A DNA stretch of 64,000 nucleotides, from assembly GCA_045863295.1 (NCBI GenBank), contig BTWA01000024.1, forward strand, positions 29,608 through 93,607. The letters are read 5' to 3'. Shown here in pieces: positions 32,801-38,800 of the stretch. The DNA is from Candidatus Hydrogenedentota bacterium (GTDB taxonomy: Bacteria > Hydrogenedentota > Hydrogenedentia > Hydrogenedentales > SLHB01). A program made the position numbers. How positions within the stretch are numbered: the stretch's first letter is position 1; every line of letters begins with the position of its first letter.

Positions 32801-35800
32801 CTCCAGTTCGAGGTAATCCATGATGCGGCTCAGGCCCCATGCCCAGGCCCCAATCGATCCCCATTCGTCTGCCGCCGGCGCGTGTTGGCCCTCCGCGTAA
32901 AAGAGGGGATGCACGCCGTTCTGAAAACCGTCGTCAAAATCCGGATCGATATCCCCGTAATACGCCGTTACCAACCCATACCCGCGCGAAAGTATCGCGT
33001 CAACGGCCCAGCGATTCGAACTCGCGCCGCGCGTCGCCTCGGTCGCACGATTGTCCACGACCCCGCTCTCCTTGCTCTCCCGCATCCACGCATCGGAAAG
33101 AAGGATGTTCGGGTCGCGATAAACCGTGTGATTTCCTCCAAAGTTCAGCCCAAGAAAAACCGGTACCGGCCCCTTGGCCTGCCTCGGAACATAGACAAGT
33201 ACATCAATGCGCGGACGCTCCGCGCCGTCCGAAAGGTAAATGGAGACCTGCTTGCGAATGGCCGCGCCACCAAACGCATACATGTCCATTTCCTTTTCTT
33301 CAACGCGGAAGTAAGGCGGCTTGCCCGGCATCTTGCCGTATACGTGCGATTCAAAGAGAGCGAGAATCTCCGGCCGTCGCTTTTGTTGCCACTGTTCCTT
33401 TGTCGTAACGGCGGTTCCATCCAAGGCGACCAGAGGATCGGGCAGCGTATAGGCGGGAACGGCGGCCTCGTCGTAATTGGCTTCCTCCTGGGAGTGCGCT
33501 GTCAACGGAAACGCAACACACGCGATCAGAAGAAATAATCTCGTCATAGTGAAATGGTCTCCCTTGGAAGGACTGGTGCGACCCCACAACCGCCTCAACA
33601 TGGATCGCGCGTAGCCAGGATTATCGGGCCATCGCGCTGATTTCGTCCAGAATCGACAAGAGGGACTCAGCCTCCCCGCCAGCCGTTGCACCTTGAACGA
33701 ACCGAATGGAGAGGCTCACGAAAACACCGGCGATGCCATAACACAACGCCACCCCGTACAACGCAAGTCCCGCCTGATACACTTTCTTTAGCGTGCCCGG
33801 CCAACCCTTGCTCAGTGGCATGCCGGATAAGATTCCCAGCGGAACACAAATGGCCAACGCCCAGAACAACAACCCGCCGCTATCCTGCACAATCCAGTTC
33901 CAACGCGGATCCACGGAGAACGGCTGGCCGGAAAGCATCACGTACGACTTCGCAATGACCCAAATCACCAGCCACGAGGAAAGATGCAACACAATGGCCA
34001 CGGAAACAGCAAGGACAACCGCCATCGCAGGGCCAACCGGATTGATAGGCCCGATCGATTCGCGCGCCGCCGTGAAGTAGAAGTAAAAAAACGTGCCGAG
34101 ATAACCAATCAACAGCAAAGGAATCAAGGGAGGGATGAAACAAAGCAACACCACAAGCCCGCGCACAAACAACGGATTTACATCAAATTGCCCCGCCAGA
34201 CCCGCGCACACCCCGAGCCAAATGCGGTTGTCCCAATCCAGAAACGCCTTCGACAACGAACTCTGTCCGTTACGGCTCAAGATCGCCGCCGCATCCTCAG
34301 GCGTACCGTATTCCGAAAGCACCCCCTCCAATTCGTCCGGCGATGGGCCATCGACAAACCGTGCCAGATCACGGTTGATCCGGTCGTTCAGTTTTCGCAA
34401 CAGAGAATCGCGCTCCTCCCGCGGCATTGGCGGAATAAAGTCGCCAACGTCTCGAAGATAGTTGGATACGCGTTGTTGTACGTGTTTTGCAGTTTTCATG
34501 GCTGCCGATCAGGGTTGGGCAAGAGTATAGCGAATTGAAGGAGTTGGGGGAAGTCCAAGCGCGAACGGCTCACCCCGGCGTCCTCTCTCCAACCCAGCGT
34601 GAATGGGAGAGAGGACACCCGGGAGACATCAATGCCGGTCTCTAGATTCAAGCGCCGCAATTACAGTGCGGCCACTTCTACTGAAATCCCATCAGGACGC
34701 GGCCGCTGCCCTGCCAATTCCGCCGGTCGTTGCCTGCATGTTGCTTCAATTACCCGCACGACCTCCTCCTGAGGTGCGGCACCGTGCCGATCTTCGGCCA
34801 GTCGAATCACCCTTTGATAGATCGCCTCCAACTGCTCCGCTGCCGGATCGAATCCAATCTGCCGGGCATAGTGATTCAGAGCATTCCTGCCCGACCGCGC
34901 CGTGAATACCAGGCGGTGACCCGGCACGCCGACTAGGCCAGGTGGGACAAACTCGTAGCTGGACGGATCCTTGATGATGCCGTCCTGGTGGATGCCGCTG
35001 CTGTGCGCGAATGCATTGGATCCCACAATGGGGCGATTCGGTTGCACCGGTACGCTCGTCACCGCGGCAACGTGAGCGCTCAGTTCGGCTATATGCTCCA
35101 ACCGCAATCCCATCGCGGCCACCTGTTTCAAGTGAACCGCAACGCCAACCTCCTCAATAGAGGCATTGCCCGCACGCTCGCCAATCCCATTCACCGTAAC
35201 CTCCACTTGCCGCGCACCCGCACGTATTGCAGCGATACTATTTGCCGTGGCAAACCCCATATCGTTGTGGCAATGCGCGGAAACCAGGACGCTCCGGTCC
35301 ACGAAATGCACCATATCCGCAATCATCGCCGCATATTCCTCCGGCAGCGCAAAGCCCACCGTATCCGGCAGATTGATACGCGTGGCCCCGGCCAGAATGG
35401 CGGTCTCCACGCACTGCCGCAAGAAAGGCCGTTCCGCGCGGGTAGCATCTTCCGCACTGAATTGAACCGCCGCCACCCGATTTCGCGCTGCGCGAACCGA
35501 CCGGTCAATGGCCCGTATGGCCTCGGCCCGCGTCATTCGCAATTTTCGAGTCAGGTGGATATCCGATGCACCCAAAAAAACGTGAACCACCGGGTATTGG
35601 GCTTCCCGCAGGGAATCCGCCGCAGCCTCCACGTCGGCCTCCACGCAACGCGCCATCGCGGCCACTTCACAGTGCCGTACAGCCTTGGCCACCAGCCGCG
35701 CGGCCTCCGCATCGCCTGGCGACGAAATGGGAAACCCCGCCTCAATGGTGGACACGCCGAACGCTTCCAGCCGCCGAGCTATCTCAACCTTTTCCAACGG

Positions 35801-38800
35801 CGTGATATGGACCCCCGGCGTCTGCTCGCCGTCGCGCAGGGTGGTGTCGAAAACGCGTACTGTATTCACAATGTGACTCCTTCAATGATCGACCCGCTTC
35901 CGGGCCGGATTTTCGTTTGTTCCGGTACAACGCAATTAGCCGCTGGCTACCGGCCCTAAGGGCCGGGTCCCCGCGATCGAGACCACTGAGTCCCGCGTCC
36001 ATGGACACCACCTCCTTTCGCGAATGGCGGCTACCCGTGCCGCCGGTTAGACAAAAAAAACGAGGCCGAGGGCTGAGCCCTCGGCCTCGTTCGTCAAACC
36101 CTATTGGGTAATATCAGTCTAAAGGGTAATTCGAGGCATATCGGGCCCGCGTTCCTCCACAAGGAGGAGTGGGAGTCGCAGCCCGAGAATTTGCTTCGAA
36201 TTACACATAATCGCCTCTAATAACCTCCATATCCTAACACTGGTGGCAAGGAAATTGCAACTGGCCCATCCCTGCCTTCACCGCTCCGAGCGATGCGAAT
36301 AGCCCGCATTTTGCACCACGCTTAAATCGTGCGTGGAAGACTTAAGTACGGTCTCCGTGGACGACTGAAGTACAGTCTCTGTGGAAGACTGAAGTACAGT
36401 CTCCGTGGAAGACTGAAGTACAGTCTCCGTGGTGCAAAATGCTCACACAGAATTCCTTAAGCTTGAAACGCTGAGGATATTTCACCTGCATACTGTAAGT
36501 GCGCCAGTTTTGGTAACAGGCCGGTTGAATTGTTGGTACACAGTTAATTGGACAAAGTCGTGAAATATCCGGGATAGTGCGCCATAAGCGATTCTCGCGT
36601 GGCGAGTTAGGATTGAAATTGGTGTCCTTGTGTGGTAGCATCCATCGGGTTTGTGCGGGTCAACGAAGTTTAAAACCAATCCACAGGAAGAGAGGCGGCG
36701 CCCATGGCCCCGAACAAGAAACTGCTCAAGCTTATCGAGCTTCTGGACCGTAGCATTCAGCTTTGCCGTGAGTTCATGAACGATTGGCTCCTGTTCAACC
36801 AGATTCTGAGTGCCTATCCCAGCCCGGGTGTGAACAAGGCCCAACTTGAGAATCAATTTCTCAAGATAAAGAGCAAACTGGCGCGCGAACACCAAGTGCT
36901 CAAAGAGTGCCTCGGTGGTGATTACAAATTCGACCCCAACACGATGAACATCGTCTCCAGCGCCACAAATTTGGAAAGCATCTATTCGCAATCCGAAGTC
37001 GCCATCAAAAAATTGCAGAACGAATGGCACCGCGCTTTCATCTCCATCAACGAGACCTTGGGCGGATTGGAAGACAAGCGCGCGCGGGTGGAAGCCGGCG
37101 AGATGGTGTATTTTGGCGATATCCAGCCGGGACCCGCGAAGGGCGGCAATAAAAAGAATACGCAAACGCTCATCGTTGTCATTTTGGTTATCGCAGGTGT
37201 TGCTGCCTTTGGCTGGTACTTCCAGGACAGTTACAGGGACATACTGGGTTTATAAACCGTATATCCTGTGCAATCATATCGAGTATTGAACCGGAAAGCG
37301 CGGCGTGAACCGATGGAAAGGGAACACCGGTGACCAAACGCGAACTCGTCATCGAAGTAGCGGAGCGGTTGGGGTATACCCAGAATGAAGTGTCTGCGTG
37401 TATTCAAACAACGCTCGACACCATTGTCGACTGTCTCTCCGAAGGACAGCGGCTCGAAATACGGAACTTCGGCGTTTTTGAAGTAAAGGAAAGGGACGCC
37501 CGCATGGGACGCAACCCGCGCACCGGCGAGGAAGTCCCCATTTCGGAAAAACGCGTCGCCACCTTTAAGCCGGGCAAGGCATTAAAGGAATGGGTGCAAA
37601 GCGGTGTCGCCCCGGTGGACCTGCACGAAGACGATGCTCACTATCCCGATGGCTCCGGCGCGTCGTCCGCCGAAGGTTCGCCCCAGACCCCGCACGCGTC
37701 CAGTCCGGATGGCCGGACCGGGGAATTGTTTTGATAAACTAGCATGTGCACCGGACGCCCATGTTGTGGCCAAATCGATGTTGGTCCGATTTGGCCTGAT
37801 CGGGCATCAGGTGGAAGTATCCCATGGCCGTGACAAGCCCCACAGAACCGCCTCAAATTGCCTGGAAAAACCGGCGCAAGGAAGATCCCGAAGCCCGAAT
37901 GACGTTCATTGAGCATTTGGGAGAGCTTCGTGCCCGCATCGTGCGCATCGGCATTGCCATCCTTGTCGGTACGGTCATCGCCTACGTTTTCTACGATTGG
38001 ATTTTCTACGTCGTCACTCAGCCCTTGATGCCCGTACAGGCCCATCGCGAAAAGCTCGAGGAACAATACGGCGCGCCCGCACCAGGGGTGGCCGGTAATT
38101 GGACTATCGTGGCCCCAATCGGAAATTTTACCGCCCGGCAGGCCACTCCGGAAGACCTTGCCAAGGCGGGAGTGACCGCGATAACGCCGGGGACGGCCCC
38201 GTCACCCGACACGGCGGATCAGACCGCGACGCCCGCTGAGTCCACCCCCCCAAATTCGGAAGCCATTCCGGCCGCGCCCAATCCATACTACGTTTGGGAA
38301 TTTCCGAAAGACGGATTTCAGGGGCTCCTGGTAAGGCCAGTCGAGACGGAGGAAGAGGAAGGCATGAAATGGGTCATGCAGAATCCCCTGGAAGGATTCA
38401 TGACCCAGTTCAAACTCGCGGTCCTGTTTGGAATTGTATTCGCCTCGCCGTACATCGTCTACCAGATTTGTGCATTTATCTTCCCAGGGCTGACCAGCGG
38501 CGAACGCTCGGTGGCCATGTTTCTGCTGATGGGGTCCAGCTCGCTGTCGCTCGCAGGTGTCACCGTGGTGTACTTCTTCATATTTCCAAACATCTTGCCC
38601 TTCCTGCTGGCGTGGACGCCTCCAGGTGTTTTCCTTCAATTGCGCGTGAACGAAACCATTCCATTCATTCTTAAGAGCATTCTCGGTTTTGCCGTGGCGT
38701 TTCAGTTTCCCATGGTGGTGCTTCTACTGGTCTATTTGGACTTGCTGACCACGGAAGTACTGAAAAAGCAGCGCCGTGTCGCTATCGTGATCATTTTTAT

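Follow-up and report, generated by a model that had tools for sequence, protein, structure and literature searches.

How a cell might run a 2-isopropylmalate synthase that leucine would be unable to inhibit is the question raised by leuA2 of a Candidatus Hydrogenedentota bacterium, which lies on the minus strand of the 64,000-nucleotide stretch of DNA analysed here (the window, to which all positions refer; all features described are on its minus strand). The most probable answer, to which we give a probability of roughly 85%, is that this spare, feedback-free isopropylmalate synthase is turned on through a leucine attenuator of the classical ribosome-mediated kind. Neither leucine attenuators nor short forms of LeuA are new in themselves; their pairing provides a clean natural case of an unbraked committed-step enzyme that may be run safely, a state that is engineered into leucine-producing strains. 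The attenuator itself is recognised from its parts, their conservation and their covariation, its ribosome-position switch comes from folding models, and a response to leucine would be the expected outcome. This first layer is textbook; two added layers, a second reading frame and a degradation tail, are candidates drawn from sequence.

Attenuator architecture upstream of leuA2

The segment at 36119-36208 (-) is confirmed as a leucine leader, belonging to a transcription attenuator of classical type. The genome-wide survey's note had reported an uncalled 29-codon leucine leader and a strong terminator upstream of the gene, and both were found. The leader frame (36119..36208, 29 codons) has a weak ribosome site at 36214-36218 and reads ..ILGLRLPLLLVEE.., with the control codons CTC GGG CTG CGA CTC CCA CTC CTC CTT at 36161..36187, so that CTC CTC CTT closes the leucine run. 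Among 42 aligned leaders the control stretch holds 5-8 Leu codons each (median 7), and CTC occupies alignment columns 34 and 43 in 42/42 and column 40 in 40/42. A protector hairpin 1:2 of three nested helices (36128..36202, -32.8 kcal/mol) contains region 2 (36128-36150), which can instead pair with the 5' arm of the terminator to form an antiterminator 2:3 (36076..36149, -22.5 kcal/mol). The intrinsic terminator 3:4 (36053..36089) has a 13-bp stem of -28.4 kcal/mol and an 8-U tract, and the leuA2 ribosome-binding site follows at 35877..35882. A putative promoter picked out by eye at 36231..36260 (-35 TTGCAA at 36255-36260, 18-nt spacer, extended -10 TGnTAGGAT with its hexamer at 36231-36236) is not among the consensus-scan calls; similar hexamers occupy the equivalent place in most of the relatives compared. 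The fold of the 201-nt leader region has z = -6.2 and was equalled in 0/200 shuffles. An Rfam search of this region returned seven weak matches, none at the gathering score and none to a leucine leader family.

These parts suggest a familiar sequence of events. When leucyl-tRNA is plentiful, the ribosome would pass the Leu codons and cover region 2, the terminator would form and leuA2 would be off; in the absence of a ribosome, formation of the 1:2 hairpin would again let the terminator win. When leucyl-tRNA is scarce, a ribosome stalled on the Leu run would leave region 2 to pair with the emerging 5' arm of the terminator, which would permit read-through. The E. coli leu leader, at 28 codons with 4 Leu, is of similar design (PMC6123439, PMC5794164). 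The E. coli/Salmonella leuABCD and S. aureus ilvD attenuators are described as sharing the short Leu-rich leader, an antiterminator opposed to an intrinsic terminator, and stalling that gives read-through (PMC6123439, PMC5794164). The leuA2 system differs from them in that it controls one gene rather than a pathway operon, its enzyme lacks the allosteric domain, a second reading frame follows the terminator, and no Rfam match reaches the gathering score.

Covariation and modelled switching

Protector, antiterminator and terminator helices all covary across 42 loci. The terminated state is 95.2% paired with two-sided changes in 17/35 pairs, the antiterminator is paired in 95.0% of cells with two-sided changes in 4/10 pairs, and the terminator 3:4 has such changes in 10/12 pairs. 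Neither the terminated state nor the antiterminator was matched in percent paired by any of 500 shuffles, and slid controls reached 22-60%, although shuffles overstate significance here because the aligned leaders are kin. Masked folding with three footprint sizes placed the antiterminator above 0.5 in 38-41/42 sequences when the A site lay on Leu codons, in 3/42 without a ribosome and in 0/42 with a ribosome one to three codons past the Leu run, so that in these models it forms in 38-41/42 only with a ribosome on or before the run. On the full transcript at equilibrium the terminator wins at every ribosome position (39-42/42), and the switch must therefore be kinetic. The 42 leaders carry 273 Leu codons in the control stretch and 11 after it, and frameshifts 3' of the run are tolerated (loci L002, L010 and L013). 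Four hallmarks of an attenuator were found together: a Leu-rich leader before a pathway gene, an intrinsic terminator, a mutually exclusive antiterminator and, from the models, a suitable placement of control codons.

Distribution of the leader

The survey's note had counted leader DNA in 57/135 genomes of the phylum at E<=0.01, a figure that was reproduced, and a covariance model extends this to 67/135, a few of them weak. The link that it drew between leader and short LeuA (14/23) holds in kind and was understated in size: all 41 strong short-LeuA matches in the 135 genomes have a leader, 30 detected by BLAST and 11 diverged, with inserted DNA having pushed the leader farther from leuA2 in 3/41. 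Conversely, leuA2 lies downstream in 54 of the 65 informative leader loci; 11 of the 65 lack it, 10 carry a degenerate copy and 2 a remnant. Within this genome no leader precedes leuA1, leuB, leuC, ilvB or cimA, and of six candidates from a crude genome scan only the leuA2 leader fits its gene.

Persistence of leaders at 11 loci without leuA2 could mean that the element acts as a structured RNA, either bound by a protein or a small RNA in its own right, and that its Leu codons are a by-product of C/U-rich stems. Nearly invariant third codon positions and peptide ends (NS..PRI) that follow from helix 1 fit this idea, as do leader mutations upstream of leuA in Streptomyces that are described as not behaving as classical attenuation predicts (PMC1262725). 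We nevertheless regard it as very improbable: the antiterminator covaries, the Leu run ends exactly where modelled stalling ceases to work, diverged leaders of altered sequence keep their Leu runs without the stem sequence, and several orphan leaders have lost starts, Leu-to-His changes or stops. A comparable element is the actinobacterial LEU element upstream of leuA, which likewise has a leader with a Leu run whose codons pair with a GGAGG-type strand (PMC1262725). In that element, as the cited account describes it, the partner of the run is the leuA ribosome site, beneath a pseudoknot, and other attenuator parts are missing (PMC1262725). The leuA2 leader does not share the pairing of the LEU element: the partner strand of its Leu run lies within the leader, and both terminator and antiterminator are complete, although no separate search for a pseudoknot was made.

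Control codons and tRNA-Leu(AAG)

The same internal pairing bears on the suggestion that CUC CUC CUU was tied to the phylum's A34 tRNA-Leu. The tRNA is real and must read CUC: among 43 tRNA genes of this genome tRNA-Leu(AAG) is present and tRNA-Leu(GAG) absent, and the AAG form spans nearly the whole phylum (89 of 92 matched genomes; GAG in 3), a feature without mention in two recent papers found under the phylum's name. A special tie gained no support. The CUC codons are held by pairing with GGAGGA inside the leader, and helix 3 is 100% paired. Diverged leaders of the phylum use CUG/CUC mixes.

A further possibility is that the leader responds in addition to the inosine state of this tRNA, with CUC (and CGA) needing I34 and low TadA activity stalling the ribosome as a leucine shortage would. 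According to one report, the AAG anticodon may be limited to CUU when unmodified, and as IAG it decodes CUU and CUC equally (PMC13249217). Consistent with this are the prevalence of tRNA-Leu(AAG), a TadA match above cut-off, the 163/273 control Leu codons that are CUC or CUU, and CGA flanked by Leu codons both in this leader and in diverged ones. We consider the proposal quite unlikely, however, with CUC fixed by pairing and common genome-wide (21% of Leu codons), CUG making up 71/273 control codons, and genome G116 keeping CUC CUC CUU alongside a GAG tRNA as its matched tRNA (on a contig of uncertain, possibly foreign, origin).

The short synthase and its full-length paralog

The controlled gene, leuA2 (34661..35869), encodes a short-form 2-isopropylmalate synthase of 402 aa that comprises a TIM barrel with subdomains I and II and no allosteric domain. 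The domain search agrees with the survey's note on this point, detecting HMGL-like and HCS_D2 and no LeuA_dimer; the three subdomain II helices are present in the structure model. The separate full-length gene that the note reported was also located, on contig C24 (LeuA1, 503 aa), and both LeuA1 and a CimA-like protein (528 aa) carry LeuA_dimer. At 22 active-site positions, chosen from what is known of such enzymes and from alignment with solved structures, LeuA2 agrees with LeuA1 at 21 and with CimA at 16, so that the catalytic and metal residues of a DRE-TIM enzyme are retained together with a pocket of the IPMS type. It is predicted from sequence to be an active enzyme that is insensitive to feedback. 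A division of work in this genome is supported, with a domain and no leader for LeuA1 and a leader and no domain for LeuA2; LeuA2 would add capacity at the committed step beside LeuA1.

The attenuator may be real and LeuA2 nonetheless serve mainly outside the leucine pathway, through shifted substrates or a non-catalytic role, which would explain dead copies under the same control. Ten loci keep leader, second reading frame and tail on a protein with 4-10 of the 22 active-site residues, five leuA2 pairs in genus g30 have dN/dS of 0.23-0.37 with open frames, F98V and P168A occur in many intact copies, in fold LeuA2 comes closest to a chain-elongating MAM synthase from plants, and a moonlighting role has been proposed for Leptospira LeuA2 (PMC12345160). 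Against this, H96, S138, N166 and P168 of LeuA2 in this genome are as in LeuA1, the solved structures that it matches best in sequence are IPMS, intact pairs have dN/dS of 0.03-0.21, and the gradient from intact through degenerate and remnant to deleted also fits repeated loss; we judge such a role unlikely. The best NCBIfam scores are also to IPMS models, all of them below cut-off.

Leptospira likewise has two LeuA paralogs, of which LeuA2 is without the C-terminal domain and is reported not to be leucine-inhibited (PDB 4OV4/4OV9; PMC12345160). The folds are similar (TM 0.79-0.80), but the LeuA2 of this genome belongs to a different clade (229.9 bits against the Leptospira LeuA2 model NF042434, below its cut-off of 500; 29% identity). 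The relevant portion of that report describes induction by superoxide and mentions no attenuator (PMC12345160).

The survey's note had read the arrangement as feedback replaced by attenuation. Attenuator control of a domain-less LeuA is supported; the history is not. In other phyla, at Deferrimicrobiota-type and Entotheonella loci, a full-length LeuA that has the domain also stands behind a Leu-rich leader and a similar terminator, so that attenuation gained in exchange for feedback is unsupported and the attenuator was probably inherited. The simpler reading is that gene and attenuator arrived together and that the domain has been lost. In a quick tree LeuA2 does not come out as a recent duplicate of LeuA1.

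A second reading frame behind the terminator

Neither this frame, here termed ORF2, nor the C-terminal tail of LeuA2 was part of the survey's note; both are added here. ORF2 (35784..36002; M-D-A-G-L..., 72 codons) lies behind the terminator and runs out of frame over the leuA2 start. It is preceded by a very strong ribosome-binding site, AAAGGAGGTG (36009..36018), spaced 8-9 nt from the ATG in 50/51 loci (search window 7-10). Length varies from 5 to 85 codons and conservation is confined to the first 5-8. Leu stands at codon 5 in 39/39 ORFs found without requiring it, encoded by CTT/CTC/CTA/CTG in 10/8/8/8 of 34, and a second Leu occurs at codon 8 in 27/51; at locus L316 the Leu is at codon 3 counted from the best-spaced start. 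A hairpin covers the ORF2 start (35972..36001), with 87.4% of cells paired and 1/500 shuffles as high; its outer helix is imperfect here and RNAalifold favours another register. ORF2 is also present ahead of leuA in Entotheonella and downstream of a leucine T-box, and at these loci 15-28 nt separate its stop from the start of leuA; 3/8 Entotheonella-type loci lack it. All 16 matches to a strict ORF2 pattern in the genome collection precede a leuA.

In the at operon of B. subtilis a T-box is followed by the rtpLP leader, which senses tryptophan with three codons. ORF2 would share with it a two-tier plan for sensing one amino acid, in which a transcription switch comes first and the place of a ribosome on a short ORF then governs the ribosome site of the gene that follows; it differs in having one fixed Leu, a variable length and, here, a peptide attenuator ahead of it. 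We propose, at a little short of even odds, that ORF2 works at translation: ribosomes loaded at its strong site would run over the leuA ribosome site, or halt there, and keep it blocked except when stalled at Leu5. The geometry of 30/51 phylum loci, where ORF2 overlaps leuA2, and of the Entotheonella and T-box loci fits rtpLP-type control; the short ORFs of the other 21/51 do not, for they end 74-123 nt before leuA2, where occlusion of its ribosome site cannot work. Nor, in folding models, does a ribosome at Leu5 open that site (median 8.3 versus 7.9 kcal/mol when free).

ORF2 may instead sense no leucine and set the basal level of leuA translation, whether by loading or coupling ribosomes or purely as an RNA structure, a reading that we hold possible at appreciable but minority odds. 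It would accommodate the variation in length, the start within a conserved hairpin, and a leuA2 site that is buried only to a modest degree (costlier to open than its shuffled controls in 35/51) and most open with a modelled ribosome at ORF2 codons 13-18. It would not lead one to expect that Leu5 uses all four CUN codons despite poorly paired first two bases, that it persists in Entotheonella and T-box loci with different codons 2-4, or that in-frame fusion to leuA2 is absent from all 51 loci. Were ORF2 to sense leucine as proposed, a single codon would serve in it as a minimal amino-acid sensor, and tandem sensing at transcription and translation would have a second case, one shared across phyla and behind two kinds of first-tier switch. 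A role as stabiliser against RNase J was considered and is unlikely; no RNase J match exceeds the cut-off in this genome.

The C-terminal tail of LeuA2

LeuA2 ends in a disordered tail (residues 381-402, 34664..34729; pLDDT 35-60) that closes with VEVAAL and is a candidate protease tag. The last three residues are uncharged in 97/120 homologs, compared with 13/41 other short homologs, 35/81 long homologs, 39% of 3188 genome ORFs and 36% of internal positions. Full-length LeuA controls, 28/44 of which end in Pro and 64% of which have uncharged ends, are for that reason a weak control. Acidic residues are nearly absent (4/120), and the last five residues take 113 different forms among the 120, with no fixed motif. 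The most likely of the functions that we can suggest, although at less than even chances, is that the tail marks LeuA2 for proteolysis and so provides an off-switch for an enzyme that leucine could not inhibit.

Three stacked controls on a brake-less enzyme can be imagined: the attenuator; a portable, undescribed codon-5 ORF that gates the leuA site, is present in three or more lineages and can follow a leucine T-box as well as a peptide attenuator; and the C-terminal tag. In some genera the entire set would be retained on a catalytically dead LeuA2 with a regulatory job. As a whole this scheme is doubtful.

For the tail, an unstructured nonpolar C-terminus of the kind expected of a C-terminal degron was found, and clpX is present in the genome. 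The ssrA ending LAA, its variants LVA, AAV and SVA, and Tsp substrates are described as similarly unstructured with small nonpolar ends (PMC9382460). The tmRNA tag of this genome ends in ALAA, which may be compared with the VEVAAL of LeuA2.

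A probable leucine attenuator upstream of leuA2

The 402-aa isopropylmalate synthase gene leuA2 (34661-35869, reverse strand) is preceded on the same strand by an uncalled, leucine-rich leader ORF of 29 codons (36119-36208), and a terminator with a 13-bp stem followed by eight U residues lies downstream of the leader. The genome-wide survey's note had described this leader and its strong terminator as a leucine-codon attenuator; both are present as described, and every structural feature of the class that was tested was found. We consider a genuine leucine attenuator very probable (roughly 0.85). 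Two mutually exclusive folds carry this reading. In an alignment of 42 of the first 50 leader loci (excluding L024, L031, L032, L034, L041, L045, L046, and L047), the terminated state, comprising hairpin 1:2 and the terminator, is 95.2% paired with two-sided changes in 17 of 35 pairs, and the antiterminator (regions 2:3) is 95.0% paired with such changes in 4 of 10 pairs. Both states exceed 500 shuffles in percent paired and slid controls reach 22–60%, with kinship among the loci inflating these tests.

Folding models place the choice between the two states under ribosome control. When the transcript ends just after region 3 and carries no ribosome, 3 of 42 leaders adopt the antiterminator fold. 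The number rises to 38–41 of 42 when the ribosome A site is on the leucine codons, and it drops to none of 42 when the ribosome stands one to three codons beyond the leucine run, both over three footprint sizes. The terminator is favoured at equilibrium on the full transcript and, therefore, the switch must be kinetic. Leucine codons are concentrated within the 42 aligned leaders (273 inside the control stretch versus 11 downstream of it). One-base deletions behind the leucine run at L002, L010, and L013 alter the peptide and leave the RNA unchanged. The leader was also considered as a type I toxin or functional peptide, which was rejected because its hydrophobic run is short and frameshifts are tolerated behind the leucine run. 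Two sequencing runs considered as RNA evidence were probably DNA; their coverage was limited to scattered pieces that included no part of the leader, and they were given no weight either way.

In its mode of action, this first layer is like the leu attenuator of E. coli and the ilv attenuator of S. aureus (PMC6123439 and PMC5794164), and it is a different element from the actinobacterial LEU element (PMC1262725). No Rfam family is assigned to the leader. In a search of article texts that took in few subscription journals, no description was found of the element, of leaders in this phylum, or of the second short ORF discussed below. The main interest of the locus lies in this candidate second ORF and in the C-terminal tail of LeuA2, which go beyond a first layer of known type.

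Control codons and tRNA-Leu

Among the 43 tRNA genes of this genome, tRNA-Leu(AAG) is present and the GAG form is absent; TadA scores above cut-off. Reading of CUC by tRNA-Leu(AAG) requires I34, according to PMC13249217; the tRNA of this genome would be expected to carry I34. Across the phylum, a tRNA-Leu pattern was matched in 92 of 135 genomes, with AAG in 89 and GAG in three, namely the two most distant genomes and G116. Of the 273 control leucine codons, 163 are either CUC or CUU, versus 36% of leucine codons genome-wide, as estimated from crude gene calls. The earlier proposal that these control codons are tied to the A34 tRNA-Leu is borne out for the tRNA itself and not for a special tie. 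The AAG tRNA prevails in the matched genomes, but the CUC/CUU enrichment is explained by the pairing of CUCCUC with GGAGGA, and G116 has a GAG gene yet uses the same control codons. Proteins on the G116 contig that carries this tRNA are mostly 30–44% identical to those of the present genome, and the contig may be foreign.

Distribution of the leader

Named relatives identify the phylum as Ca. Hydrogenedentota. Leader DNA matches 57 of 135 genomes of the phylum, as had been noted before, and a covariance model detects the leader in 67 of 135, with weak scores in a few. Two exact leader patterns gave 40 and 30 matches over the genome collection; most are titled Ca. Hydrogenedentota and the remainder are unclassified or otherwise labelled assemblies. 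A LeuA2 homolog lies downstream in all 30 matches of the 30-match pattern. Conversely, 30 of 41 strong short-LeuA protein matches have a BLAST-detected leader upstream and 11 have a diverged one with the runs LRLRL, LRLALLL, or LLLL. Among 66 leader loci, leuA2 is intact or nearly so at 42, degenerate at 10, and a remnant at two; nothing related follows at 11, and one lies at a contig end. In this genome, leuA1, leuB, leuC, ilvB, and cimA showed no leader upstream, nor did LeuA1 of four relatives. A multi-copy element was also considered and rejected: the leader occurs once in this genome, and many BLAST matches were traced to a neighbouring repeat.

Leaders without leuA2 occur at L028, L031, L032, L034, L041, L042, L045, L046, L129, L131, and L132, several of which are decaying. 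L031 is a second leader copy in genome G100 and precedes an amidohydrolase-like ORF.

The short enzyme and its history

LeuA2 has HMGL-like and HCS_D2 domains and lacks the LeuA_dimer domain, which is present in both the 503-aa full-length LeuA1 and the 528-aa CimA-like protein of the same genome. A short LeuA without the allosteric domain does, as the survey held, exist beside a separate full-length LeuA. At 22 chosen active-site positions, LeuA2 is identical to LeuA1 in 21 and to CimA in 16, and isopropylmalate synthases are its top sequence matches among solved structures. The structure model (mean pLDDT 92.7) shows the barrel together with subdomain I and three helices of subdomain II, and residues 381-402 are a disordered tail; the model superposes on the Leptospira short isopropylmalate synthase with a TM score of 0.79–0.80, and the protein falls outside the Leptospira LeuA2 equivalog. 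Leptospira LeuA2 is stated to be feedback-insensitive in PMC12345160. By this analogy and from the absent domain, LeuA2 is probably insensitive to leucine feedback.

A quick tree, from which five LeuA2 rows that were short or truncated had been removed along with redundant rows from outside, places 46 LeuA2 rows and five phylum LeuA1 rows each on their own side of a fully supported branch; they are not sisters. Outside relatives of LeuA2 begin with one match at 58% identity, followed by a mixture of short and long proteins at ≤50%. Degenerate copies (214–323 aa, 4–10 of 22 active-site residues) occur at L004, L009, L019, L023-L026, L035, L037, and L038; they retain the leader, the second ORF, and a nonpolar tail, and dN/dS is 0.23–0.37 in five pairs from genus g30.

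The survey's note further proposed that attenuation had replaced feedback. The division between two LeuA genes holds within the genome, but replacement does not follow as history because leucine-rich leaders also precede full-length, domain-bearing LeuA at outside loci. Such leaders lie upstream of mostly full-length LeuA at 29 of the 41 outside loci whose flank was long enough, most of them close kin; similar terminators were recognised by eye at eight, and LeuA_dimer was confirmed in two of the proteins. The simpler reading is that the attenuator was inherited and that the allosteric domain was lost afterwards. The outside leaders are found at L060-L106, upstream of leuA (e.g., ..LCGLALLGLRG..); two were tested against Rfam and gave no leader family.

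A candidate second ORF

Downstream of the terminator, a second short ORF (ORF2, 35784-36002, reverse strand) begins at an ATG preceded by a very strong ribosome site; its start lies within a conserved hairpin. Codon 5 is leucine (Leu5) in 39 of 39 ORF2s found by a search without a leucine requirement; a count of 51 of 51 was set aside as circular since that search demanded Leu5. The Leu5 codons are evenly spread over CUN (10/8/8/8 of 34), although pairing is poor at the two fixed bases. Diverged lineages conserve ORF2 better than the attenuator. A strict ORF2 pattern gave 16 matches in the genome collection, all with leuA downstream, one of them behind a T-box and before a full-length-type LeuA. 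A loose pattern was unspecific in metagenomes, where leuA lay downstream in 21 of 68 matches, the attenuator was present at one more, and the others belonged to unrelated genes. A similar ORF with Leu5 occurs at five of eight Entotheonella-type loci; the gap between its end and leuA is 15–28 nt at four of them and, as judged by eye, about 40 nt at the fifth. Among 13 further loci, only L316 has a similar site.

In one proposed mechanism, ribosomes on ORF2 would occlude the leuA site, and a stall at Leu5 would relieve this block. Such an arrangement resembles the T-box plus rtpLP arrangement of B. subtilis. At 51 loci, ORF2 overruns the leuA2 start out of frame in 30 and stops 74–123 nt upstream in 21. 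Occlusion fits the long and abutting forms, but leaves the short forms unaccounted for, and in folding models the leuA2 site does not open upon a stall. Three other roles were rejected or not supported. ORF2 is fused to leuA2 as an N-terminal extension at none of 51 loci; a structural switch that opens the leuA2 site upon a Leu5 stall is not supported by the folding; and a shield against RNase J is discounted because the genome has no RNase J above cut-off.

At L225, L238, L275, and L289, a leucine T-box (an Rfam match at L225, motif only in the others) is followed by a short ORF that starts M-E-S-E-L-G-D-L and stops just short of the leuA ribosome site. At L117/L332 (G091:C10:11706-12500), an ORF-less group II intron fragment lies directly behind the terminator, between leader and ORF2.

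The C-terminal tail

The last three residues are uncharged in 97 of 120 homologs and include an acidic residue in four. The corresponding counts are 13 and 16 among 41 other short homologs, 35 and 27 among 81 long homologs, and 39% and 31% among 3188 ORFs of the genome; in one control, comprising 44 full-length proteins that are for the most part related, 64% of the ends are uncharged. The tails are unalignable, and the last residue is nonpolar in all ten degenerate copies. The tail resembles ssrA-type tags (PMC9382460), and clpX is present in the genome. From its sequence, the tail is a candidate protease tag.

Gene neighbourhood

A palindromic repeat (36296-36450), within which a 24-nt unit is repeated 4.2 times, lies just upstream of the putative leader promoter and is found at some 50 sites across the genome. 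Further upstream, a gene divergent from the leader (36704-37255, forward strand) and upstream of an HU gene encodes a protein of 183 aa, which carries a membrane anchor at its C-terminus and matches no Pfam or NCBIfam family. Behind leuA2, an inverted repeat (~34570-34625, by eye) separates it from a gene for a PspC-domain membrane protein (33621-34499, reverse strand), homologs of which also lie behind leuA2 at L004, L035, L037, L038, and L047.
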